DNA of 64,000 nucleotides. It comes from Synechococcus sp. Its GTDB lineage: Bacteria > Cyanobacteriota > Cyanobacteriia > PCC-6307 > Cyanobiaceae. The notes beneath the pieces were generated by a model that was not told where the DNA came from, did not search any database, and saw only the letters and a program-made list of their open reading frames with translations. The first letter of the stretch is position 1; the number at the start of each line of letters is the position of its first letter. The position numbers and the translations under genes were made by a program. This document shows positions 4,415 through 39,732 of this stretch, in pieces. The DNA lies in NCBI GenBank assembly GCA_047284725.1, contig JBJBEO010000001.1, forward strand, positions 1,144,203-1,208,202, read 5' to 3'.

Positions 4415-5182
4415 TTATTGGCCGCTGACGATCTCATTTTCAAGCAGCATATTAAAACCGAGAAGTTGTTCATCGCTCAACGATTGGCGACTGCTGGCTC
4501 CAAGTTTGTCCTGCAAGAAGGCACGCGCTTTTGCAGGCTCCCACTGAAGGCTTTGCAGCATCTGATCCCCCTGGCTGATCAGCTCACTGCGACGAAGCGG
4601 AACAGGTGCCTGATCAGCCGAGGTGCCTGGCTCCAGGGCTTGCAACCGTTTGATGTAGGCCACGAGGTCGCTGTAGCGCGTCACCTTGTGGCGGCTGCCA
4701 TGACCAAAGGCCCGTTCCAGGTAATGGCGCTCCTGGGCTCGGTCCCAGCCGATCCGCTGGAGTTCCAGGTCGATGGCGGCAAGTTCGTCGCTCCAGTCGT
4801 CAGGGTCGGTTGGCGCTTCGCTGGGGGCCTGGTCCGCTTGCTGTGGCTCAGGGCTCTGAAGCAATGGCAGGTCCGGGGGGACAGGGTTGCTCGTTTTCGG
4901 CACCTCCTTGGTGTTGCCTTCTGGCGCGGCGTTCGGCGTGACGGCTGCTGGCTTTGGTGTTGCTGTGCGGGGTGCGGCTGATGGGGGATTGGGAGGTGGT
5001 GACACGGAGGCCTGTTCTGTTCCGAGGCGCCGAAGAAGCCTCTCCAGGGCTCGGTCTTCAGCCTCTTCGGCACTGCTTGCCTCCCCGATGGCACTGGCGA
5101 TCACCGTGCCGCCCTCGGAGGCCATGACCAGCACCACACAGCGCGTCGACTCGATGTGGCAGAGCTGAGCCTGGGTGTGCAT
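4415..5182 (-). CDS. Conserved cyanobacterial hypothetical protein
   Basis: 255 aa. N-terminal AEEAEDRA motif, Pro-rich linker, and C-terminal DWSDELAAIDLELQRIGW...FG and SRQSLSDEQL repeats. Confidence 0.8.
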   Translation of the reverse strand: MHTQAQLCHIESTRCVVLVMASEGGTVIASAIGEASSAEEAEDRALERLLRRLGTEQASVSPPPNPPSAAPRTATPKPAAVTPNAAPEGNTKEVPKTSNPVPPDLPLLQSPEPQQADQAPSEAPTDPDDWSDELAAIDLELQRIGWDRAQERHYLERAFGHGSRHKVTRYSDLVAYIKRLQALEPGTSADQAPVPLRRSELISQGDQMLQSLQWEPAKARAFLQDKLGASSRQSLSDEQLLGFNMLLENEIVSGQ

Positions 5183-5220
5183 TCCACTGGTGCAAGCTGC
5201 CCATTTCTAGGCTGCATCCC

Positions 5221-5949
5221 ATGGATTCAGCAGCTCTGCCATCACTCACCCCCCTTCTTGACGGTGTCGACCGTTGGGGGGAGTTGTTGCCTCTGTTGCC
5301 GGTGTTGGTGTCGTTGGAACTGATTCTTTCCGCTGACAATGCCATCGCCCTGGCCGCCATCGCCAGCGCTCAGCACGATCCAGAGCGGGAACGCCAGGCT
5401 CTGAATCTGGGGATCGCCATGGCTTTCGGCTTAAGAATTGGCCTGATCCTGATGGCTCAATGGGTGCTGGCATTCCGGCCCATTCAGTTGCTGGCTGGTT
5501 GCTACCTGCTTTGGTTGTTCATCGACCACTGGCGTTCACGTTGGCCGAACAGTGAGACGACTGACAGTTCAGCCGCAACATCGGCAGCGGGTGCCAATTC
5601 CTTTGTTCGTACCGTCCTGGCCCTGGCGTTCACCGACCTGGCTTTTTCCATTGACAGTGTTGCAGCGGCCGTGGCGATCAGTGACCAGCTGATTTTGGTG
5701 ATCACCGGCGCCTTCATTGGCGTGGTGGCTTTGCGTTTCACATCGGGTCTTTTCATTCGCTGGCTTGAGATGTTTTCCCGTCTCGAATCGGCTGGTTATT
5801 TCGCGGTCGCCTTTGTCGGCCTCAAACTTTTGGTCTCCTTGGTTTGGCCAACCCTTGTTGTGCCGGAATGGTGCACTCTGGTGACCGTGACCCTGTTGTT
5901 GATCTGGGGGTTTTCCGAACGAAGATTATCGATGGCCGAGGAATCCTGA
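5221..5949 (+). CDS. TerC/YkoY family membrane protein
   Basis: LELILSADNAIALA and DLAFSIDSVAAAVA TerC motifs; several TM segments. Confidence 0.92.
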   Translation: MDSAALPSLTPLLDGVDRWGELLPLLPVLVSLELILSADNAIALAAIASAQHDPERERQALNLGIAMAFGLRIGLILMAQWVLAFRPIQLLAGCYLLWLFIDHWRSRWPNSETTDSSAATSAAGANSFVRTVLALAFTDLAFSIDSVAAAVAISDQLILVITGAFIGVVALRFTSGLFIRWLEMFSRLESAGYFAVAFVGLKLLVSLVWPTLVVPEWCTLVTVTLLLIWGFSERRLSMAEES

Positions 5950-5951
5950 CG

Positions 5952-6293
5952 ATGCTGGTTGAACTTCGACAGGCCGGAAGTGAGCGCCTGGTGGATCGCA
6001 TGGAGCTTGATGAGGCACCTCACCCAGGTCGATGGTTTGAGCACGGACAGCACTCCTATTTCGTGCTGCAACGACGTCATCGCTACGCCCTGCGATCCGG
6101 TCGCTATCAACTCGCGTCCGTTGTGTTGTCGGTGAAGCAGCAACGCCAACCCCTGGATGCGCGTCGTTTCCGCCACGGCTGGGTGATTGGCGATCCAAGC
6201 TGTCGCTTCAATGCGCTCAGTCCACTGCTGCGATGTGCCGTGTTGCCTGATGGACCCTGTGATTCCTGTCTGCAGCGTGAAGCGCGCTCTTAG
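5952..6293 (+). CDS. DUF6464-like cyanobacterial protein
   Basis: RRHRYALRSGRYQL and IGDPSCRFNALSPLLRCAVLPDGPCDSC motifs; ATG at 5952, just after the terC stop. Confidence 0.8.
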   Translation: MLVELRQAGSERLVDRMELDEAPHPGRWFEHGQHSYFVLQRRHRYALRSGRYQLASVVLSVKQQRQPLDARRFRHGWVIGDPSCRFNALSPLLRCAVLPDGPCDSCLQREARS

Positions 6294-6296
6294 GCC

Positions 6297-6791
6297 ATGA
6301 ACGAGCCATGGCCAGATCTCAGATGGCATTCCTGCCGACTGCTGCGCGGCCATGGTGTTGCGTCAGGCCATGCCAATCGTGACCCTCTCCGCCCCGATTC
6401 GCCCTATCCGGCTGGCACCATCACGATGCAAGCCCCCTTGTTCGCGGAGAGGGGGCTCGATCTTTCCCCTTACTGGCCCGGAACTCTCAACGTGTCCTTT
6501 GCACCCAAGAGCGTGGTGTTGAGAGACGCAGATCATTGCTTTCCCCATCTTCGTTGGACACCCTTGCATCCACCTGAAACCTTTTCGTTCTGGCGCGTGG
6601 TGTTGCGGCGAATCAGGTCATCGCAGGAGCTGAGTGGCTTGATTTATTTCCCCCACCCAGAGACCAAGCAGCGCCACTGGCAACCTCAGTCTGTGGTGGA
6701 AGTTCTCGCCCCATGGATCGCTTATCTTGATCCTCAGGAACCTCTGGCGCTGGGCGTCAGTCAACGTCAATTTTCGTTGCTGGATGCTTGA
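6297..6791 (+). CDS. Hypothetical protein with a riboflavin-kinase-like PGTLN motif
   Basis: GHGVASG...YPAGTI...WPGTLNVS...ETFSF...YFPHPETK; co-oriented with the upstream genes. Confidence 0.7.
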   Translation: MNEPWPDLRWHSCRLLRGHGVASGHANRDPLRPDSPYPAGTITMQAPLFAERGLDLSPYWPGTLNVSFAPKSVVLRDADHCFPHLRWTPLHPPETFSFWRVVLRRIRSSQELSGLIYFPHPETKQRHWQPQSVVEVLAPWIAYLDPQEPLALGVSQRQFSLLDA

Positions 6792-6920
6792 TCGTCCAGT
6801 TCAAGATTGAGGGCCTGGGCTGTGGACTTGTCAAGTTGTGTGCTGATCCATTCAGATGCATCCAGCCGAGCGATCGCATGGATTTAAATATTGATTGGAA
6901 GCCGTTGGGGCGAGGAGGTC

Positions 6921-7013
6921 ATGACTCCAGATTGGATTGGTGTGGCTGCGTTGTTGTTGATTATCGCCACAATCACTGCTGTTGGTTACCTGGAAGGGCA
7001 TTCAATGCTCTGA
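6921..7013 (+). CDS. 30-aa single-TM microprotein
   Basis: GAGGAGG Shine-Dalgarno directly upstream of ATG 6921; MTPDWIGVAALLLIIATITAVGYLEGHSML*. Too short for the ORF track. Confidence 0.55.
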   Translation: MTPDWIGVAALLLIIATITAVGYLEGHSML

Positions 7014-7300
7014 CGCCTCGAAGCAGTGCTGTCAGCTCGTAGTCCTTGAATCAGTTTGTCTTGCAACCTGACCAGCAAGCGTTCCATTCTTGATGCAGGT
7101 GTTTTGTGGTCAGAGAGTTGTCAAAACCACGCCACGTCTTGTCTGCCTGTTTGTCCGTTGCCATCAGTGACACCAGCAAGTCAATGGCTTCGTCGGCTGT
7201 GACGCGTCGCCCTGAGGGTGTTTTTGGCAGCAATTGAGCGCCTCTTTGCGCCAACACGGCCAATCGAATCGCCACAATGGGGGCCGATCAACGGAGCACC

Positions 7301-7964
7301 ATGGTCAGAAGCCCTGCTCCCTGGTTGGCCCTTGCCGCCCTGTCTGCAGCAGTGACCGGGTGTTCTGTCTTAACAGGGCGTGTTCCAAGTGTTTGCAAGG
7401 CGTTTCCTCTTTGCTCGCCTGCTGTGTCGACGTCGACGCCGATTAGCAAGGCAAGCCGCGAAGCAGCTGCAGGAGGCCACCCATCTCCGCAGCTACCGCA
7501 GAGCCGCGGAGGTCCTGGACCGTGAACTGATCCAACTCAGTGAAGGTCCTCTTTCTCCAGGCGAGAAGCGTGAGGTCGACCGACTGACGTCGCTCAACCG
7601 AACAGCGCAGATCGTCGTGCTGGAGGAAACCAAGGCCCAGGCCAGCCTGGATCGGGCCAGCGACGCCATCACTGCGGCATCCAGGCTGAGGGGTGCAGGC
7701 CAACAGAGGCAGCTGGCGCAGGCCAAGGATCTCCTGGTGCAAATCCATGGCCGCAGTTTTGCCGATGAGCGATCACGGCGGCTGATGCAGGAACTGGAAC
7801 GCCTGATGGCTCAATCCGAACTTGAGGTTCCGAAGGACCCCAAACAGGAGCCAAGCAAGGCTGGGGATCCTGTGGCTCCACCGCAACCAGCCTTGCCTCC
7901 ACCAAGTCAAGGCGATTTGCAGGGCGGTCAGCCAGACGGTTGGTGGGACAAGCCCCTCTTCTGA
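7301..7964 (+). pseudogene. Putative lipoprotein, apparently frameshifted near 7445-7456
   Basis: GGAG RBS and ATG 7301 give a lipoprotein signal (LAALSAAVTG-C). The helical body (AKQLQEATHLRSYRRAAEVLDREL...) continues in another frame after AGCAAGGCAAGCC (tandem GCAAG). Confidence 0.55.
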
Positions 7965-8016
7965 CGCCACGTTGAATCCAGGAAGGCCTGGCTTAATCTC
8001 TGGGTCCGATGGATTC

Positions 8017-8595
8017 GTGGGGCTTGTGCGTCAGAAAGCTGGTGTGATTGCAGGTGTCGCGCTATCAGCAGCTGCCTCTTGGCTCTCTGTGGAGCCGGTT
8101 CTGGCCGGAGCCAGCGCACGGGGGTTTGTCTGCGGTGTCGCCAATGGTGCTCCAGCCACCAACGCCCTGAAAGCTGATGGCACGCAGATCCCTGTGATCC
8201 GCTGGACCAGCAGCACGTTCACTGCTGCCGGCTGGGGTCCGCAGCGTCGCTGCGAGGAGGTGTCCGAACGGTTCGACACCTATCTCAAGCAGGGACGTCT
8301 GGCCTACATCACCACAGGACGGATGAATCGACTGCCTGTGATCTGTACAGCAGCGAGCAAGCGTGGCCCCTGCGATGGCTTGCTCTACACCCTGAAGCCT
8401 GGTCAGAACGCCACCGCCACGTTGAAGGACTTGTTGCAGATTCGGGTCAAGGCACGGGGACCACTGAATGAGACCAGTGGCAGGCTCTACGTGAGTCTCG
8501 ATGAGCTGATGACCGCGTCCGAGGCCAGCACCGATGCTGTGATGGCACCCGAGCTCTCAGACACGTCGACTCAGCCCACGACTCCCCTCTGGTGA
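8017..8595 (+). CDS. COP23 (circadian oscillating protein) domain protein
   Basis: FVCG...PAT...IPVIRWTS..F..AGWGPQRRCEEVSERF...YITTGRMNRLPVICTA...LLYTLKP; signal peptide; start approximate. Confidence 0.85.
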   Translation: MGLVRQKAGVIAGVALSAAASWLSVEPVLAGASARGFVCGVANGAPATNALKADGTQIPVIRWTSSTFTAAGWGPQRRCEEVSERFDTYLKQGRLAYITTGRMNRLPVICTAASKRGPCDGLLYTLKPGQNATATLKDLLQIRVKARGPLNETSGRLYVSLDELMTASEASTDAVMAPELSDTSTQPTTPLW

Positions 8596-8906
8596 GGCTG
8601 TGCCGGAAGGTCCGCCGTGTGGCCAAAACAACGTTCGTGATCCCTTCACAGTTGTCTTTCTTTCATTCAGGAGGACGCGTCAGTCGTCGTTGTGATTGCT
8701 CGGTTCGTGGCCATGGGGTTCCAACACTTTTCGCCAGACCCGGCGAGGGTGCTTACCGCAAGGCATGGACTTGATGCGTGATTGTGTGATTCGATCAACG
8801 ACTGGTCTGATTGGATTTGCGCAGCTTCATCAGGTGATGCAGCTTTTGTTCGGCAGAGCTGTCGCTGCATTTCAGGGCTATGTTTTGAATCCTGTTGGCA
8901 TTCTCA

Positions 8907-9332
8907 ATGCCTGAATCGTCTTGCTTGAGCTGGCCTCAGTTGTTCAAAAGGGCAGCAACGAAACCGTTTGACTATCGGTCAACCTCATCAAGGGCTGAGT
9001 ACTGGGTCTTTGTGATTTCCATGGCAGTCGTGCAGGCCATTGTGTCCATGATTGTCACCATCGGTACGGCGTTCTATGTCTATGCCTCCACGGCCCCTGA
9101 AAGCATGGGTTCCGAATCGTCTGGGCTGATTTCGGTGGGAGTCCTTTTGTCGGTTGTAAGTGTGCTTAATTTTCTGATAAGCATCTATATCATTCTTGCT
9201 ACATCTGCGCTTGCCAACCGACGACTGAGAGACCTCCAAATGAATACCTGGTTGACGCCCTTGTTCCTGATTCCTTGCCTGAATTTTATCCTTGCGCTTG
9301 TTTACTTCACGAGGAAAAGGGCTTTGGCATAA
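8907..9332 (+). CDS. DUF805 family membrane protein
   Basis: FDYRSTSSRAEYW and ALANRRLRDL motifs; 3 TM segments. Confidence 0.85.
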   Translation: MPESSCLSWPQLFKRAATKPFDYRSTSSRAEYWVFVISMAVVQAIVSMIVTIGTAFYVYASTAPESMGSESSGLISVGVLLSVVSVLNFLISIYIILATSALANRRLRDLQMNTWLTPLFLIPCLNFILALVYFTRKRALA

Positions 9333-9444
9333 CCGCTTGAATCGGCATCTCGGACTGCTGGAGTGCTGATTGAGCGACATATTCAGAAGCCTGGCACGAA
9401 TGGACGACTTTGAATTCAGGTTCTGCGCGATCGTCGTGGGTCGC

Positions 9445-9501
9445 TTACAGTTGTCATGAGCGAAGCGAGTGGAAGCTATTCGGTTGATCCAATTGTTCTG
9501 C
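9445..9501 (-). repeat. Degenerate/truncated attC (last cassette)
   Basis: Minus strand, 8 nt after the stop at 9509: GCAGAAC-AATTGGATCAACCG...CACTCGCTTCGCTCATG. This looks like an R''/L'' arm with the CGCTTCGCT loop common in attC sites; no 3' GTT arm found. Confidence 0.5.
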
Positions 9502-9508
9502 TACACCA

Positions 9509-9970
9509 TTAGTTGGAATGACCTTGATTGCCGTACCAACCTCCTGTGTCACCCCCAATCCAAACTTTATGTTTGAATTGGGGGAAATATTCATGACAAA
9601 GACTTAGGATGTTATCGTCTTTAGTTATGTTGTCGCCCTTTTTGTAACCTTTTGGGTAAAAGATTCTATCAATATATTTGCCTTGTACTCTTATCTGGCC
9701 GATGACGTAAATTCCATTGCCTACCCCGTATACGGAGCCTTCTTTTTGCTTTGTGTATACTGCTACATATCCACCGTCAGCTTTTGTGTAATGGTTAATT
9801 GTAGGCAATATTCGTCTTTCGAGGCCTGGTAAGGGATAATTGATTGCTATATTTTCCTTTACGTAAACTTTAAAATCACGTGGCAAAAGATTGCTTGTCG
9901 AGATTCGAGGATTACCAGTGCAGCCTAGTGTAGTGAGGCTAAGTGCAATGAAGAGTGTCAATTTTTTCAT
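9509..9970 (-). CDS. Cassette-encoded putative lipoprotein, unknown function
   Basis: AT-rich; ATG 9970 MKKLTLFIALSLTTLG-C lipobox; C-terminal WIGGDTGGWYG. Confidence 0.8.
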   Translation of the reverse strand: MKKLTLFIALSLTTLGCTGNPRISTSNLLPRDFKVYVKENIAINYPLPGLERRILPTINHYTKADGGYVAVYTKQKEGSVYGVGNGIYVIGQIRVQGKYIDRIFYPKGYKKGDNITKDDNILSLCHEYFPQFKHKVWIGGDTGGWYGNQGHSN

Positions 9971-9979
9971 ATTTTTTCT

Positions 9980-10084
9980 TTCTATTTTGTTGAAAGCTGC
10001 CCCGCAGTGGCAGGCAGAGAGTTTGTAGTGGCGAAGGAAGAAGATTATTGTTGGTGGTCTGCCTACTTGAAGGACTTGTTCGAT
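9980..10084 (-). repeat. Degenerate attC
   Basis: R''-like ATCGAAC-AAGTCCTTCAAG 18 nt after the MazG-like stop; internal stem AGGCAGA/TCTGCCT. GTTCGATGC matches this cassette's 5' GTTAGAAGC at 7/9. The R' GTT is eroded. Confidence 0.45.
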
Positions 10085-10101
10085 GCCCATAAAGGCTAGG
10101 G

Positions 10102-10419
10102 CTAGATCTCGCCATCGACTAAGAAGAGGCGCCTCTGAAACCCGCCTCGCGTTTCGGCCTTTTGCCTTCGCACGACCTCAAGCTCCTCCAAGGTATGGCC
10201 CTTGGCCACGCAGAGAGCGCGGATGACTTCAAGGGTGTCTGCCAACTCCTGAATGTCGCCACTACTCTCGGAAACCTCGGTGACCTCTTCGTGGAGTTTT
10301 GCAATGAGTTGTGCCACGTATTCGTCGTCGCGCAACTCCCGGACGGTGCATGCCTTTCCGGCAGCTTCCATGACCTCAGGGATTCGGTCGCGGACAAGCT
10401 TGTTGTAGGTCTTTCGCAT
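10102..10419 (-). CDS. MazG-like all-alpha NTP pyrophosphohydrolase (COG4997 / PRA-PH-like)
   Basis: YNKLVRDRIPE, KLHEEVTE, ELADTLEV and R.QKAETRGGF motifs. Confidence 0.9.
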   Translation of the reverse strand: MRKTYNKLVRDRIPEVMEAAGKACTVRELRDDEYVAQLIAKLHEEVTEVSESSGDIQELADTLEVIRALCVAKGHTLEELEVVRRQKAETRGGFQRRLFLVDGEI

Positions 10420-10427
10420 CTAGAGGC

Positions 10428-11462
10428 TTACAGCAGGGAGTTGGCGACAAATGAGTTCGCTGGTCGCCAGCGACTTGGTATCGCGTTGATAGCGAGCTGG
10501 TCGCATTGCTGAAGGAAGCTCGCGCGTTTCTGCTTGGTGGCACCGGTCTGCGCAATCAGCGTCTCGCGGAGTGGGTGGTGGCTGTCTATGAGCCAGTTGT
10601 TCCTCACGTTCAGGCGCTCAAGGTACTCGATGTGTGGGATGAGGTCGAATTTTCCACCTGGGCCACGGTTGCACTCTGTGCAGGCCAGAACGAGGTTCCA
10701 TACACCGTCGATATTCAAGCCACAAAACGGCTCGGCATGGTCGAGTCGCTTGGGGAAAAAGTGGTCGACATCGGCGTCCAACGTCTCACTACGGTCGATG
10801 GTGATTGGTTGATGGCAATAGAAACATGTGCCTTTCTGATACCCGTTTAAAGCATCGCGCACTCCGGCTATTGACACCCGACGAGTTGCGTCAGTCGCGA
10901 TGAAAAGCTCGCCAATCTCAATGTCTGTTCTTACTTCCAACACGCGCGAAGGCACTCCAAGGTTCCAGGCCGTCTCAACTAGACGCCATCGTGCTTCCGC
11001 CTCTAGCGCCAAGCTGTTGGCCTGCGTGTCCGCCATGAGTCGTCGAAACTCTTCAGTGAGCCGGATTCCTTTGGCTGTCGCACGCTCGTCGTGGAAGAAC
11101 CGAATTGGTACATCTGAAGAGCCGACGATGTGAAATGCATCGATGACATTGTTGAAGCCACGCCTGACGGTCTCCATGCGTAGTTGATCGGCTGAGAGTT
11201 CGCCGCGGTTGAAGTTGCGACAGGCGTCGAGAAACACGCTTGAGCGCGAGGTCGCTTGTCGATCCGCGGAATTGAGGTGTCGGGCGATCTCCCGAGCGAA
11301 AGGTACCGCGAGATCATCAAGGCGGACGAGGTCATCGGTTGCTGGGGCGAGCTCAACCAACGAGCGAGCGAGGGCAAACTTGTATGACGCGACGTTTCGA
11401 CCAAAAAGGACGATCGCCCGCCAGCAGGATGCGGGATTCGGCTTGCTCTCAATGAATGTCGT
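10428..11462 (-). CDS. HNH endonuclease; start codon reads ACG
   Basis: CFYC...DVDHFFP...WNLVLACTECNRGPGGKF HNH core. The frame stays open upstream of the track's start (WRAIVLFGRNVASYKFALA) back to ACG at 11462, with no in-frame ATG/GTG/TTG before the TAA at 11496-11498. Confidence 0.88.
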   Translation of the reverse strand, partial: TTFIESKPNPASCWRAIVLFGRNVASYKFALARSLVELAPATDDLVRLDDLAVPFAREIARHLNSADRQATSRSSVFLDACRNFNRGELSADQLRMETVRRGFNNVIDAFHIVGSSDVPIRFFHDERATAKGIRLTEEFRRLMADTQANSLALEAEARWRLVETAWNLGVPSRVLEVRTDIEIGELFIATDATRRVSIAGVRDALNGYQKGTCFYCHQPITIDRSETLDADVDHFFPKRLDHAEPFCGLNIDGVWNLVLACTECNRGPGGKFDLIPHIEYLERLNVRNNWLIDSHHPLRETLIAQTGATKQKRASFLQQCDQLAINAIPSRWRPANSFVANSLL

Positions 11463-11515
11463 GGTCGAGGCGCTTCGGATGCACCCCGATTCTACTTAAG
11501 CCGCTTTCTCGATGC

Positions 11516-11596
11516 TTCTAACGCCCAAGCTGTGCGGCGCAAACGAAGCGCAGCGTAGTTTGCGTCCGAACGAGCGGAACGAGCGCCTTGTTAGCT
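11516..11596 (-). repeat. attC site (81 bp)
   Basis: Minus strand AGCTAAC-AAGGCGCTCG...GCAAACTACGCTGCGCTTCGTTTGCG...CAGCTTGGGC-GTTAGAA; imperfect palindrome; the upstream gene's TAA lies inside R''. Confidence 0.93.
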
Positions 11597-12438
11597 ATTT
11601 TTGAATACATGATTTCGATGGTGCTCCATATAACCCATTAATCTGCTTGGCACCTTCCTCAATTTGAGATTGCCAGCCAATCCAAGTTTTCAATGTCATC
11701 TTGTGATAGTTGAGGGGAAATCATTGCTATACCGGCTTCATCGAATGTGATTAGTCCCAAATCAAACAAGTGATCTAATGTGGGTTGCAATAACAGCCCA
11801 TTCATTGGGTCAAGACGCTCTTGATTGGATGAATCTCTCCACGGTTTGATATGCGAGGCTCGAACCACAGAGAGATTGCCTAACCCAGTAACTGAGCAAC
11901 TTCCCCATACTTCAACTACACCATCCCTGAACAAGCCCTGCCCGATGCGACTCTTTACGATTGATTTTTTTTCAGTTTGATCTAGCGATTTGAATTCATC
12001 CTTGTGCGCTTCGATATCGTCAAACATGTCTGGACGTTGACTTTTGTTCCCGACCGAAAACACAAATTGACTGGGTGACGAGCTAAGGCGGCGATGTTCT
12101 TTTAGATGAATCTGTCCGCAATACACAAATGGCGTATGATGAATGTCTCGATAAAAGAGGTGTATTTCATCATTCACAGACTCTGCATTGATCACTCTGT
12201 TGTCTGATGAATGCTTTTCTTCGCCTTCTCAGTGAAGCAGCTCGCCGTCTAAATAATCATTGTATTGAGTTAGTGCTTCTTGTTTTTGTTTTGTGACAAA
12301 CAGGATGATGTATTTAGTTCCTGATGGCGTTACAACGCCCCTGGAAATAGCCTGAAACCCTTTGTAGCCCCAAATATCAGCCAGGGATGGCCGCTCATAT
12401 TCTTGCCCAATTTTCAGTTTTTCAAGGCTGACTGGCAC
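11591..12438 (-). pseudogene. DUF3427/SRA(PUA)-like domain + HNH endonuclease (putative modification-dependent restriction), inactivated
   Basis: ORFs 12229-12438 and 11659-12195 share a frame and are separated by TGA in LLH*EGE (W expected). C-terminal RIGQGLFR...CSVTG...ASHIKPW...NGLLL...DHLFDLG HNH. A 1-nt frameshift near 11685 hides the tail ...LRKVPSRLMGYMEHHRNHVFKNS*, which ends in the attC R'' box. Confidence 0.85.
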
Positions 12439-12454
12439 GGTATTTCCTTTTGAT

Positions 12455-12612
12455 GGCTAACAGTGTTTCGGCGGACAGTAGAAGTTGCTAATAGTTGATT
12501 TTTTGCTGCATAAGCTGGCAATGGCAGCTTTCCCCCAAGATCAACACCCCAGCTCTAGCAACAATTTTAGCGGATTCCACTCCTCGCATGGATTGTTATG
12601 CGGACCGCAAAA
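12455..12612 (-). repeat. Second attI-like module with attC-like internal symmetry
   Basis: 147 bp from GGCTAAC (12455) to GTTATGC (12601). Both ends align with 13215-13372. Nested stems GTTGCTA/TAGCAAC, GTTGAT/ATCAAC, AAGCTG/CAGCTT. Confidence 0.75.
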
Positions 12613-12707
12613 GCTCTTCAACGCTTGGTTGCTTAGCTGAAGGCCATAATCCTTATGGAGACCATTTCAAGTCATTCATATGGGGCGATTGTTGGTCGCT
12701 TAATGGT

Positions 12708-12809
12708 GCCTAGCGCCCCGTTTAGCGGCTTTTTATAGTTGGCTAAAATAACGAACGCAATGAGGGAAGCCAACTATTAAAAGTCCCAGCCTGCAACGCC
12801 TTGTTATAT
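12708..12809 (-). repeat. attC site (102 bp) with mutated R' core (GCTAGGC)
   Basis: Minus strand ATATAAC-AAGGCGTTGCAG...TTTTAATAGTTGGCT...AGCCAACTATAAAA...AAACGGGGC-GCTAGGC; the gene's TAA lies inside R''. Confidence 0.9.
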
Positions 12810-13208
12810 GTGTTGAACACCATTCCATCCATTTCGGTTTATGATTTTAAACTTTGAATCGTCTTTGCTGTAGCAACTAGACTTTAATGATGAAAAGTCT
12901 AGGTTGTTTCGCGGAACCTCAAAGTATTCAAAAACCTTGTTGCCATCGGTAGCAACCAATAAAGTAATACCATCTAGTGTGTGAATTTTACTTTTTGTCT
13001 CGATGTCGAACTTAAAGCCTATTAGATCTTCCGCGCTTTGGTTGTTTGAATAAGGTGTAATTATGCAAACTTGTTTCCAGTTCCCTCTTATCTCTATTGA
13101 TAAGTCGACAAACTCTTTTGAATGGTCAAAAGTTCGTTCTGGAGCTTCGCCCACCTTGGAGCAAGAAATCAATAATATCACTAAAATAACAGTCAGACAC
13201 TTATTCAT
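12804..13208 (-). CDS. First cassette: putative lipoprotein, unknown function
   Basis: ATG 13208 just after the core site GTTATGT; MNKCLTVILVILLIS-C lipobox; WKQVCIITPY motif; very AT-rich. Confidence 0.82.
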   Translation of the reverse strand: MNKCLTVILVILLISCSKVGEAPERTFDHSKEFVDLSIEIRGNWKQVCIITPYSNNQSAEDLIGFKFDIETKSKIHTLDGITLLVATDGNKVFEYFEVPRNNLDFSSLKSSCYSKDDSKFKIINRNGWNGVQHI

Positions 13209-13214
13209 AAACAC

Positions 13215-13372
13215 ACATAACAGTCTTACGGCGGTCCGCACAAGCTGCCGCCAGGCAGCTTATGCGGCAAAAAAATCCGTTTGAATCACCTCTCAGGAAC
13301 CAATTACCTACTTTTAGCAAGACCACCGCACCCCATCCAAGCCCGGCTTGGTTTGTTACCAGGACCGCAAAA
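13215..13372 (-). promoter_or_regulatory. attI region, downstream of the intI 3' end
   Basis: Core GTTATGT at 13221-13215 matches the first cassette's R'' (ATATAAC) at 6/7; hairpin CCGCATAAGCTGCC/GGCAGCTTGTGCGG; lies between the intI stop and the first cassette. Confidence 0.78.
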
Positions 13373-13383
13373 CATCCTCGGGT

Positions 13384-14358
13384 TCAGAGCAAGTCCGCGG
13401 GACTGCGGACGACTGATGGACCGCGATTCAGCACATGGGTGTAGATCATCGTGGTCTTCACATCGCTGTGACCCAGCAGCTCTTGAATCATGCGGATGTC
13501 GGCTCCCTGCTCCAGCAGGTGTGTGGCAAACGAATGGCGGAAGGTGTGGCAGGTGGCTGGCTTGCTGATCCCCGCCGCCTGCACGGCAGCACGCACGGCC
13601 CGCTGTACCAGGCTCGGATCCAGGTGGTGTCTCCCCTCCAGTCTCTGCCGGGGACTCCGCCAACGGCGGCATTAGGGAAACAGCCATTGCCAGGCCCATT
13701 CCCTCGCCGCATTTCGGTATTTCTTCTCCAGGGCATGGGGGAGCTCCACCGCACCCCAACCCGCTGCCAGATCGGCCTGGTGCACACTCCTCACGTGCTG
13801 CAGGTGCCGTTGCAAGGGCTCCACCAGGCTCGAGGGAAGCACGGTGCGCCGGTCCTTGCCTCCTTTGCCGCAGCGCACCGTGATGCAGCACTTCTCCAGG
13901 TCCACATCCTTGATCCGCAGCCTTAGCGCCTCCATCAGCCTCAGTGCACTTCCATAGAGAAGCTGGGCCACCAGGGCCTCGGCTCCGCCCAGATGGCCAA
14001 GCACGGCCTTTACTTCATCCACCGTCATCACCACGGGAAGGCGCGCCCGTCTGCGGGCTCGGATCACACCCTCCAGGTTCCCCACATCACCACCCAGCAC
14101 CGTGCGATAGAGAAACAGCAAGGCCGCCAGCGCTTGGTTCTGCGTGGAGGCACTCACTCTCTCCTCTGTCGCCAGATGACTCAGGAACGCATTGATCTCT
14201 GCCTCCCCCATCTCACGCGGATGACGCATCCGTTGAAAGCGCAGGAATCTCCGCAGCCAGTGCTCATAGCTCGACACTGTCCGGCGTGCGTAGTGCCTCA
14301 CCTGCAGCTCTTCCCGGTAGCGCTGGATCAGGCCCGGCGGCTGGTTCGGGTTGGCCAT
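13384..14358 (-). pseudogene. intI: Integron integrase with an in-frame nonsense codon
   Basis: HYARRT, VSASTQNQALAALLFLYR, LLYGSALRLME, GKGGKDRRT, the IntI-specific patch AGWGAVELPHALEKKYRNAAREWAWQWLFP, then TAA (13672-13674), then in-frame [12 protein letters not shown]...[12 protein letters not shown]...[16 protein letters not shown]. Confidence 0.96.
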
Positions 14359-14499
14359 CGATGGGGTGTCTGCGCAAAGGGAGTGTTCCCCCACTTCGAC
14401 AATCATCAGCAACAGCTGTTCACAACATGGATTGGCGATACCTCCCTGCGCCCCGCCTGATACGCCTTGCTAGCGATTGGGCGGCTCCGAGAACCGTTT

Positions 14500-14900
14500 T
14501 TGCCGTCGAACATTGCCATTCCCATTCACGCTCGGCTGGGGTATTGGCGACCTAACGCATCGGCAATCAGGACCTGCCCCCAACCGGCCTTTCGATCACG
14601 CTGGTGAAACTTGCGAACATCACTTAGATGGCGTGCCAGTGCTGGGAACATGCTTTGTGGCAAGAGCGTCAGTCGATCCTTCCCCCCTTTGCCATCGCGC
14701 ACGCAGAGCTCTCGCCGCTCGATGCTGATGTCTTTGACGCGCAGGCTTAAGGCCTCCATCAAGCGCAACGCACTGCCGTTCAGCAATCCCACCACCAGCC
14801 TTGGTGAACCCTGCAGTGTCGCGTTCGAGCCCGGATGACGGAATCCAACACCAAGGGTTTGCCGAGCAGTTCGCGATCGAGAAACAGCACTGCAACTGGA
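14500..14900 (-). pseudogene. intI: Second, divergent integron integrase remnant
   Basis: Three frame-shifted pieces: AVLFLDRELLGKPLVLDSVIRARTR / LLNGSALRLMEALSLRVKD...GKGGKDRLTLLP...AGWGQVLIADALGRQYP / REWEWQ. The N-terminus and catalytic C-terminus are missing. Confidence 0.9.
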
Positions 14901-15079
14901 TTGGGGCCTCCGTTGGCTGTCATCGTCTGGGCCGCTGGCCAGGAGCGGATTGCTGTTGACCGATGCAACGCTCCTCCTCGTCGGCCATTGCCTAGAGCGC
15001 AGCAACGTCTTCTCGGTCCACAACCACGTGCGAGACGGTTACGGTCTCGTCGTGAGGTCCGGGGTTTTAGGGAATTGCC

Positions 15080-15298
15080 ATGGCACTGAGTGAGGAAGAA
15101 AGACTCAGGACGCGCCATCGTCTGCTGGAGTTCCTCAAATTTCGGGTGCTTGCCGCAGAGGATCAGTTTTTTGATGACCGTTCCCCCGATCAGCGTCGGC
15201 AATGGTTGAAGGGTCTCTTCCCTCAGGCCCTCTGCCTCTCGGATGAAGACCTGGACCAGGTCTGGCAGCAGGCGTACGCCCTCTACGGCTGTCACTGA
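15080..15298 (+). CDS. Small conserved cyanobacterial hypothetical protein
   Basis: [13 protein letters not shown]...[13 protein letters not shown] motif; host-like GC. Confidence 0.7.
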
Positions 15299-15368
15299 AC
15301 GTCTGCGGCGGCAATGGCGTGGTAGGTCAGCCGTTTCATGCCCGGCTTCTAGGGTGAAGGGTCTTCGC

Positions 15369-16706
15369 ATGCTGGCCATCACCGCTTCGTTGTCTCCCTC
15401 CGTTGTGTCTGGACAGAGCTTTGGGGATTTGGGCCTCAGTGCGCCCCTGCTCAGGGCTTTGGAGGAGAAGGGGTATCAGGCACCCTCACCCATCCAACAG
15501 CAGGCCATTCCGGTGGTTCTGCGCGGTCGGGACCTGATGGCTGCAGCCCAGACCGGCACTGGAAAAACCGCAGGCTTCACCCTGCCGATGTTGGAGCGGT
15601 TGAGCCACGGCGCTCGCCCCGGGCGTGGTCAGATCCGTGCCCTGGTGCTGACCCCCACCCGTGAGCTGGCGGCCCAGGTTCTCGACAATGTGCGTGACTA
15701 CAGCCGGCATCTGCGCCTTCGCAGCGAGGTGGTGTTTGGCGGGGTGAAGATCAACCCGCAGATCCAGCGTCTGCAGCAGGGGATTGATGTGCTCGTGGCT
15801 ACTCCCGGGCGTCTGCTCGACCTGCATCAGCAGGGGGCCGTTCGCTTTGACCGTGTGGAATTCCTCGTGCTCGATGAAGCCGATCGCATGCTCGATATGG
15901 GTTTCATTCACGACATCCGGAAGGTGCTGTCGCGTTTGCCCGACCGTCGCCAGAACCTTCTCTTCTCAGCCACCTTCAGCCCATCGATTCGCAAACTGGC
16001 CACCGGGCTGCTGCAGGACCCGGAGCAGATCCAGATCACACCGCCGAACCAGACCGCACGCTCCGTGGAACAGGTGGTGCATCCCTGTGACATGAAGCGC
16101 AAACCCGACTTGTTGAGCCACCTGATCCGTTCGAACGACTGGCGGCAGGTGCTGGTGTTCTCTCGCACGAAACACGGCGCCAACCGTGTGGCCGAGAAGC
16201 TCACCAAGGAAGGGCTTGAAGCCGCTGCCATCCACGGCAACAAAAGCCAGGGAGCCCGTACGCGTGCCCTCCAGGGATTCAAGGATGGCCGGGTTCGCGT
16301 GCTGGTCGCCACGGATATTGCGGCCCGTGGCATCGACATTCAGCAACTTCCCCATGTGGTCAATCTTGACCTGCCCAACGTGGCCGAAGATTATGTGCAT
16401 CGGATCGGCCGGACCGGACGGGCTGGCGAATGTGGTCATGCCATTTCCCTTGTGGCCGCGGAAGAAGCCCTGCTGCTCAAGGCGATTGAACGCACTACGA
16501 ACGAGCGTCTCGAAAGGGTCCTGGTCCCTGGGTTTGAACCGACGGTTCTCGAGGCTCCCCCCCTTGATCTCAGTGGTGGCCGCGGTCGTCGTGCACCACG
16601 TGGAGGCAGAGGCGGCGGCGGCCGCCATGATCGTGGCGCCAGTGCCCATTCCCGCTCCCCATCGACCGGCAGGCCGAAACGATCGGGTCGCCCTCCACAA
16701 CGCTGA
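15369..16706 (+). CDS. DEAD-box RNA helicase (RhlE-like)
   Basis: [26 protein letters not shown] and [12 protein letters not shown] motifs; RGG-rich tail; start approximate. Confidence 0.95.

Positions 16707-39658: not shown

Positions 39659-39732
<74 letters not shown>

Follow-up and report, generated by a model that had tools for sequence, protein, structure and literature searches.

A probable decaying integron of an inverted integrase lineage in a picocyanobacterial chromosome

We analysed a stretch of 64,000 nucleotides (nt) from the chromosome of Synechococcus sp. (assembly GCA_047284725.1, contig JBJBEO010000001.1, positions 1,144,203 to 1,208,202), hereafter the window, which carries a gene for an integron integrase (intI) and, downstream of it on the same strand, a short series of gene cassettes with attC recombination sites. 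In integrons, the tyrosine recombinase IntI joins the folded bottom strand of the attC site of a circular cassette to a double-stranded attI site, and cassettes are excised by recombination between two attC sites; the same chemistry would apply to this locus. We consider it quite probable that the locus is a small chromosomal integron of the inverted IntI lineage of picocyanobacteria, caught in the course of decay.

Integrase gene, attC sites and cassettes of the island

The intI reading frame covers 324 codons on the minus strand (14358-13387) and contains one premature stop codon, which is treated below. In a profile search with the NCBIfam models, it scored 457.8 bits against the integron integrase family TIGR02249 (curated cut-off 265), whereas the XerC and XerD models gave 153-155 bits against cut-offs of about 330. 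The class-1-type model NF011946 gave 325.6 bits, below its cut-off of 435, and the protein is not placed among the integrases of mobile integron classes 1-5. VchIntIA of Vibrio cholerae (PDB 2a3v) aligned with the window IntI end to end (residues 31-340, E-value 3e-83). The alignment included the IntI-specific insertion (around ALxxKYPxA...W.W..FP) that had been recognised in the original prediction, and the catalytic R-K-H-R-H-Y positions are kept. An intact homologue, P0004, is 91.7% identical over 324 amino acids (aa).

Two covariance models for attC, R1 and R2, were custom-built from other cyanobacteria without window sequence; neither is the model of IntegronFinder, and Rfam is without an attC model. 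R1 was seeded with eight sites adjoining intI genes, and R2 with the 19 best sites after R1 had detected more, one strand per site (alignment A4, E ≤ 0.002). Earlier seed alignments were dropped, as the structure was poor in one made with MAFFT from 15 sites (A1) and another (A3) contained reverse-strand matches. In the consensus of the eight sites, R'' and R' form a stem of 5 bp, the spacers are unpaired and 5 nt long, and a 16-bp stem has two additional bases in its left arm; 11 of the 21 pairs have compensatory changes, and the consensus energy is -23.1 kcal/mol. R2 generalises beyond cyanobacteria, with matches also in arrays of Pseudomonas, Rhodanobacter and Chloroflexi at the canonical place.

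Run over both strands of the 64 kb without filtering, R2 returned five matches at E ≤ 10. The top two, both on the minus strand, were 11598-11514 and 12811-12706, at the places where attC sites had been predicted beforehand (11516-11596 and 12708-12809), the second being marginal. The match at attC2 scored 26.0 bits (E 2.6e-4 over the window and 3.4e-5 over the island 6760-15079 described below), and a structure-aware match therefore lies within 4 kb of intI. R1 also placed attC2 first in the window with 15.5 bits, which is within the normal range because six repeated attC sites in another genome (G018) score 8.9-26.9 bits by the same model. attC1 reached 13.1 bits (E 0.55 over the window, 0.072 over the island), and its R' box reads GCT instead of GTT; homologous junctions in a further genome (G017), which read GTTAGGC, suggest that T was replaced by C within the conserved triplet. 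The relic attC3 was not reported by R2 and is known by homology alone. Four attC sites of other picocyanobacterial loci (L061, L053, L050 and L057; 35-46 bits by R2) can be aligned with it; the core does not vary among the five sequences, and the R' position of the four homologues reads GTTAG or GTTCG. The two box pairs named in the original prediction, GTTATGT (13221-13215) with ATATAAC and GTTAGCC (12461-12455) with AGCTAAC, are both present and agree at six of seven positions. Of the two cassette stop codons said to fall inside R'' boxes, that of cassette 1 does so (TAA at 12806-12804, in ATATAAC), whereas the HNH_2 gene of cassette 2b has its stop at 11659, some 60 nt short of the R'' box of attC2.

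Other approaches to the sites gave little. An Rfam run at the gathering threshold reported only a tRNA (39659-39732) and no attC-like family in the window, and a run at E ≤ 10 over 8500-15500 gave four chance-level matches. Single-sequence DNA folding of two sites produced no attC shape (z-scores -2.5 to +1.5). A scan for AAC...GTT hairpins was swamped by matches in GC-rich DNA, and its TAAC...GTTA version was usable as a seed finder only.

We regard a generic genomic island or phage-type module, with a XerC/D-like or phage integrase and with chance palindromes in place of attC, as an extremely improbable explanation of the locus. The left 3 kb of the island, where DUF805, COP23 and a 194-aa open reading frame (ORF) show no integron feature, and the statistically marginal attC1 would suit such an origin. 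It is opposed by the profile scores, over the cut-off of TIGR02249 and far under those of XerC and XerD, and by the aligned IntI-specific domain. Further, the top two R2 matches in 128 kb of searched strand coincide with the two predicted places, and arrays of other integrons contain homologues of both attC3 and cassette 2a.

Between 13208 and 9512, every cassette ORF lies on the minus strand and 3' of intI, as predicted, and the G+C content of the cassettes is 0.39-0.46 compared with about 0.60 in the flanks. No match in Pfam, NCBIfam or PADLOC was found for the ORF of cassette 1. Cassette 2a opens at the R' box of attC1 and shares 80% identity across 270 nt with a unit of the G017 array that likewise opens at an attC R' box; the agreement of one contig from a marine metagenome (X5, depth 3) with the window breaks off at 12456, the junction of 2a and 2b. 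The gene of cassette 2b matched PF13391 (1.1e-11) and the PADLOC HNH model PDLC04132 (86 bits), and is broken by an in-frame TGA at 12231-12229. The HNH nuclease of cassette 3 matched PF13395 (7e-5), with weak PtuB-like matches. The ORF of the possible last cassette had no family match, and R2 detected no attC after it. A promoter and terminator scan of the locus was uninformative. Coordinates are given in Table 1.

Table 1. Features of the island, from left to right in window coordinates
Feature	Position	Strand	Content or evidence
Rest of island	6760-9508		DUF805 8895-9332 (+); COP23 7822-8595 (+); 194-aa ORF 7380-7964 (+); 74-aa ORF (-)
Possible last cassette	9509-9988	-	153-aa lipoprotein-like ORF 9970-9512; 39% G+C
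Cassette 3	9989-11515	-	HNH nuclease 11360-10428 (310 aa); 105-aa ORF 10419-10102; attC3 relic
attC3 relic	9989-10084	-	R'' ATCGAAC; R' position TTTCAAC
Cassette 2b	11516-12460	-	HNH_2 restriction-type endonuclease gene 12438-11659; attC2
attC2	11514-11598	-	R'' AGCTAAC 11596-11590; R' GTTAGAA 11522-11516
Cassette 2a, ORF-less	12461-12707	-	Leader of about 95 nt and attI-type copy B (12614-12455), ending between G12461 and TTAGCC
Cassette 1	12708-13220	-	134-aa lipoprotein-like ORF 13208-12807; attC1
attC1	12706-12811	-	R'' ATATAAC 12809-12803; R' GCTAGGC 12714-12708
attI-type element, copy A, about 155 nt	13215-13372	-	Breakpoint of homology to L050; seven-copy alignment
intI pseudogene, integron integrase	13384-14358	-	TIGR02249; 2a3v; alignment of relatives
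Older intI remnant, heavily decayed	14440-15075	-	TIGR02249; tblastn; nucleotide homology; upstream degenerate pieces read by eye

These features occupy an 8.3-kb island (6760-15079) between conserved core genes; its left side is bordered by a TerC-family gene (5221-5949) together with a 164-aa ORF, and its right side by a conserved 72-aa ORF together with a DEAD-box helicase gene. The limits were set where collinearity with four relatives (G043, G015, G011 and G009) breaks: according to tblastx, it holds up to 6758 and resumes from 15080-15131. The island is missing in all four, in which the interval from terC to the helicase gene leaves 0.2-0.5 kb at this place, and the proposed location inside the core genome therefore holds. 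The extent originally given (9445-14900) was too narrow, since the older intI remnant reaches to about 15075. The left 3 kb of the island have host-like G+C content and no attC by R2.

The window cassette proteins had no match in more than 90 other integron loci, and neither flank nor cassette proteins occur in the integron loci of G017 and G018, whose integrons lie elsewhere in their chromosomes. The sole match of an island protein was COP23, a member of a circadian oscillating protein family that is rare in the genus (3 of 41 genomes). Its counterpart, a COP23-type gene 41% identical to it, lies about 4.5 kb downstream of the intI of a Lyngbya locus (L074, 6478-6882); this may be a coincidence.

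Inverted layout in the IntI lineage

We surveyed 80 loci with the nearest IntI homologues, all set with intI on the plus strand, and located attC sites with R2. Altogether 105 sites were found in 38 loci. The layout was inverted in 25 (sites on the plus strand, 3' of intI), canonical in 12 (minus strand, upstream of intI) and odd in one. The canonical loci, on which the strand call was validated by matches upstream and on the opposite strand, belonged to Pseudomonas, Rhodanobacter, other Gammaproteobacteria, Nitrospira, Chloroflexi and an Oscillatoriales. The inverted layout was found in all 10 picocyanobacterial survey loci with matches, and also in G017 and G018. In the window, attC matches and ORFs lie on the intI strand and downstream of intI, and the locus is accordingly inverted, which is the rarer type among integrons. 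Where intI and array are arranged in this way, transcription from intI runs into the array, and the cassettes of the window may be expressed in that manner.

Across the surveyed cassettes, 50 ORFs ran with the attC strand and 23 against it; the latter were mostly short ORFs in long gaps, and ORFs filling most of a cassette usually ran with the attC strand. One array is of another kind. In G018 (L019, G018:C1:257000-276000, 4971-11503), six attC sites that hardly differ from one another come after an intact intI and on its strand, with R1 matches on the plus strand only, and the cassette-filling ORFs in all five inter-attC intervals (73-98% filled) are antisense to attC and convergent with intI.

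In a quick IQ-TREE phylogeny of 86 IntI rows, rooted at the midpoint, the window IntI paired with that of locus L050 (Shimodaira-Hasegawa-like approximate likelihood ratio test [SH-aLRT] support, 99) inside a picocyanobacterial clade of 13 rows, all inverted (SH-aLRT 99). A branch supported at 87 had the rows labelled canonical to one side of it. The layout label requires one change on the tree, and none of 500 shuffles was as low. Filamentous cyanobacteria were in the canonical part of the tree, and the picocyanobacterial clade stood apart from that of spirochaetes. The same-strand layout is the rule for this IntI clade. The profile scores place the protein among IntI rather than XerC/D, and its predicted membership in an inverted clade is borne out by the tree. 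The contig of L050 is titled as a Chitinophaga pinensis metagenome-assembled genome, yet its integrase falls inside the picocyanobacterial clade, and it was probably mis-binned.

The locus can be compared with the inverted integrons of Treponema. According to passages of an earlier study (PMC3607928), the Treponema intI is transcribed toward attI and the cassettes, and a marine Synechococcus IntI stands in a neighbouring branch. As in the window, integrons of the Treponema denticola type have their cassette ORFs and attC top strands on the strand of intI and their recombination site 3' of it, and R2 recovered this layout at the T. denticola locus itself (L062). Unlike in Treponema, the integrase of the window is broken and its array is tiny; further, its IntI shares only about 58% identity with the Treponema proteins and, in the quick tree, belongs to a separate clade.

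Public picocyanobacterial genomes already contain annotated integron integrases of this lineage. Those of Cyanobium, Vulcanococcus, Synechococcus sp. WH 5701 and Aphanothece, labelled "integron integrase", are 69-92% identical to the window protein and have the full length of 324 aa, whereas the window copy has a nonsense codon and an older remnant directly upstream. In titles, abstracts and passages of the literature on integrons that mentions picocyanobacteria or Synechococcus, we found no description of their integron arrays or of their attI.

With the sedentary integrons of Vibrio (VchIntIA), the window shares the fold and family of the integrase and the attC architecture, including R''/R' pairing, an unpaired spacer and two extra left-arm bases, and cassettes of both carry defence-type nucleases. 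It differs in the opposite orientation of intI and in its two or three sites instead of tens to hundreds; moreover, among 46 species-representative genomes of the genus, only 6 have an IntI that scores above cut-off. According to sections of Cury et al. 2016 (IntegronFinder; PMC4889954), sedentary chromosomal integrons are those found in all genomes of a species or having >19 attC sites, and the window locus, with two model-supported sites and one relic, would fall outside this rule. The same sections record that Cyanobacteria encode integrons and that intI pseudogenes lie near 15 of 279 attC clusters that have no integron integrase (CALIN). They also define a recognisable intI with at least one attC operationally as "complete", while functionality is not ascertainable. 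The window resembles such decayed integrons and CALIN in having an intI pseudogene beside few attC sites, and by this rule would be called complete.

A conserved element as a candidate attI

The closest intact platform is that of L050, whose IntI is 91% identical and whose DNA is 85% identical to the window over 14467-13218. This homology stops at the GTTA of GTTATGT, at the crossover predicted between G13221 and T13220. The last ~155 nt of the shared block are a conserved element, copy A of Table 1, which ends in ACTGTTATGT and of which we found seven copies. Three copies directly follow an intI gene or relic (copy A, that of L050, and one at a relic 382 kb into the genome), while four lie elsewhere: copy B, two in the G017 array, and one at 1.754 Mb of the same genome. 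All seven end in ACTGTTA and diverge beyond it. A conserved hairpin is lacking (-6.3 kcal/mol, covariation term +0.15, compared with -23.1 for attC sites), and the element is therefore read as a double-stranded, attI-type site, a putative role that its position and the homology breakpoint suggest.

We consider it rather unlikely that the element is instead a long site of the attC class acting as a folded single strand, with copy A bounding a first ORF-less cassette and the real attI elsewhere. This possibility is suggested by the four copies away from intI, three of which lie inside arrays or just ahead of an attC-ended cassette, and by the TAAC...GTTA boundaries about 140 nt apart. Units consisting of the leader and the element also occur inside the arrays of two genomes, each opening exactly at an attC R' box, as a cassette would. 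Nevertheless, its stem amounts to the terminal TAACA/TGTTA only, in keeping with the weak folding energy and covariation given above, and R2 scored no copy. Three of the seven copies, relics included, begin within about 30 nt of the intI stop. In addition, the element has internal direct repeats, a kind of feature described for attI1.

The copy at 1.754 Mb belongs to a solo unit (L130, G000:C1:1749000-1760000, 5465-7997) in which the attI-type element is followed by a gene for a KAP P-loop NTPase (758 aa) and then by an attC site (28.2 bits, E 2.7e-5 by R2), with no integrase present. Placed within a restriction/defence island, it is flanked by Mrr and type I restriction-modification S-subunit genes on one side and by an HNH_2 nuclease gene on the other. 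At L050, the intI strand bears three attC sites (433-1882) at a distance of 8-9.5 kb upstream of intI, an arrangement in which the integrase would seem to stand downstream of another array.

Tentatively, and while thinking it somewhat unlikely, we suggest that the attI of this IntI lineage is the conserved ~155-nt element and that it is itself mobile as an ORF-less cassette of leader and attI, seeding insertion points that lack an integrase, of which the solo unit at 1.754 Mb would be an example. If this were true, an array would have more than one entry site, and platforms might be stacked or built anew. A mobile attI would also account for the tandem arrangement of an old remnant and a newer intI, which is seen in the window and in a further genome (G061).

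Probable decay of the platform and turnover of integrons

The stop codon in intI is a single in-frame TAA at 13674-13672, codon 229 from the ATG at 14358 (position 247 of P0001), in a column where all 10 aligned relatives (69-92% identical) have Gln. The window copy thus does not have the open frame of a functional intI. Three substitutions, T308M, G156A and G334V, affect sites that are invariant or nearly so in the 10 relatives. Contigs of two public runs from one organism (X1 and X2) span 11400-15100 unbroken and are 99.4% identical to the window (21 differences in 3701 nt); both have CAA at the stop position and Thr308. CAA (G on the plus strand at 13674) was also present in contigs of two marine metagenome runs. 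Since the 99.4%-identical strain keeps CAA, the lesion is a strain-specific change of very recent date or else an error of the assembly.

Directly upstream of intI and on the same strand lies the older remnant, which has frameshifts and stop codons and has lost its 3' third. It scored 91.6 bits with TIGR02249 (residues 113-207), and its section 14816-14529 is 53% identical to P0004 residues 123-218 by tblastn. At the nucleotide level, its closest match (75-83%) is the intI of G017, which belongs to a picocyanobacterial sublineage other than that of the main copy in the window. A third relic, frameshifted, is at 382115-382885 of the genome (L022, G000:C1:372000-386000, 9937-10886); the 3' half of the attI-type element lies directly downstream of it, and R2 found no attC near it at E ≤ 1. 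A TIGR02249 search of the 2.58-Mb genome, a closed single contig that is 99.98% complete, recovered these three relics, the window intI among them, and no intact integron integrase. The other five integrases of the genus are open and intact.

A similar tandem was seen in G061 (G061:C1:1935383-1938341), where an intact intI is accompanied, about 1.7 kb upstream and on its own strand, by a decayed intI fragment with two TGA codons and one TAA. Some metagenome contigs appear to join the two intI copies of the window (e.g., 13579 to 14649 in X3); these may stem from individual relatives of which one part aligns to one copy and another part to the other. The left edge (14467) of the 1.25-kb block shared with L050 falls on GCTAGCAAGGCG (window 14463-14476), one base away from TAACAAGGCG, the motif that opens attC1 and attC2, and could be an old recombination scar between the intI copies.

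Read along the minus strand, the locus would then consist of the older intI remnant, intI, the attI-type element with the crossover after G13221, cassette 1 with attC1, the ORF-less cassette 2a with the second attI-type element, cassette 2b with attC2, cassette 3 with the attC3 relic, and a low-GC gene. The platform would be switched off in this genome, given the change of CAA to TAA in intI and the lack of another intact intI. The mutated GTT of attC1, the decayed R' of attC3 and the broken cassette gene would fit the same state. The original prediction of a cassette-capture hotspot is upheld in one respect, as a genuine integron with IntI, attC and a putative attI crossover lies in the core genome. 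Active capture is not upheld: the nonsense codon, the absence of other intact intI genes, a single good attC, a TGA in a cassette gene and a left 3 kb without attC speak against it.

It is quite unlikely, in our view, that the integron is functional, with TAA being an assembly or base-calling error, or a clone-specific change in a population that still captures and excises cassettes. This would be consistent with CAA in X1, X2 and the two metagenome runs, the intact catalytic residues, the well-formed attC2 and the open IntI genes elsewhere in the genus, as well as with the X5 contig, which continues into different sequence past the 2a/2b junction. It is less easily reconciled with the closed and nearly complete genome and with Met308, where X1, X2 and all 10 relatives have Thr. 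Moreover, the GCT of attC1, the decayed R' of attC3 and the HNH_2 TGA are common to X1 and X2 (no differences are listed there), and the array is therefore partly frozen even where intI is open.

Several points weigh against interpreting the locus as a decaying integron of the inverted lineage. By the models, attC1 is marginal and attC3 undetected. The seeds of R1 and R2 were picked by ourselves with the simple TAAC...GTTA hairpin scan, and the E-values are rough, as calibration was shortened. Genes left of 9989 are without an integron signature, and R2 had no match in that part of the island. The IntI tree is a quick one, midpoint-rooted and without a XerC/D outgroup. The window TAA could be an assembly error, given CAA in the nearest strain. 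The attI role of the element draws only on its position and the homology breakpoint, and four of the seven copies have no adjoining intI. Finally, no sigma-70-consensus site was found in 9300-15200, compared with 4.4 expected by chance, although this consensus may not fit cyanobacteria.

The decaying integron that we favour, a small and typical representative of a well-populated IntI lineage of picocyanobacteria, leaves knowledge of integron mechanism unchanged. It offers a natural pair for experiments, formed by the TAA of this genome and the CAA of the 99.4%-identical strain, and a candidate attI for the inverted clade, which has been neglected experimentally; the attI-type element and its in-array copies are the part most deserving follow-up. 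In the current view, cassettes of chromosomal integrons often carry phage-defence genes, with which the two HNH nucleases in the window and the KAP NTPase elsewhere in the genome would fit. Integrons appear to be sporadic in small-genome marine and brackish picocyanobacteria, gained at different loci and then lost, and the three integrase relics and one integrase-less cassette in this genome are signs of such turnover.

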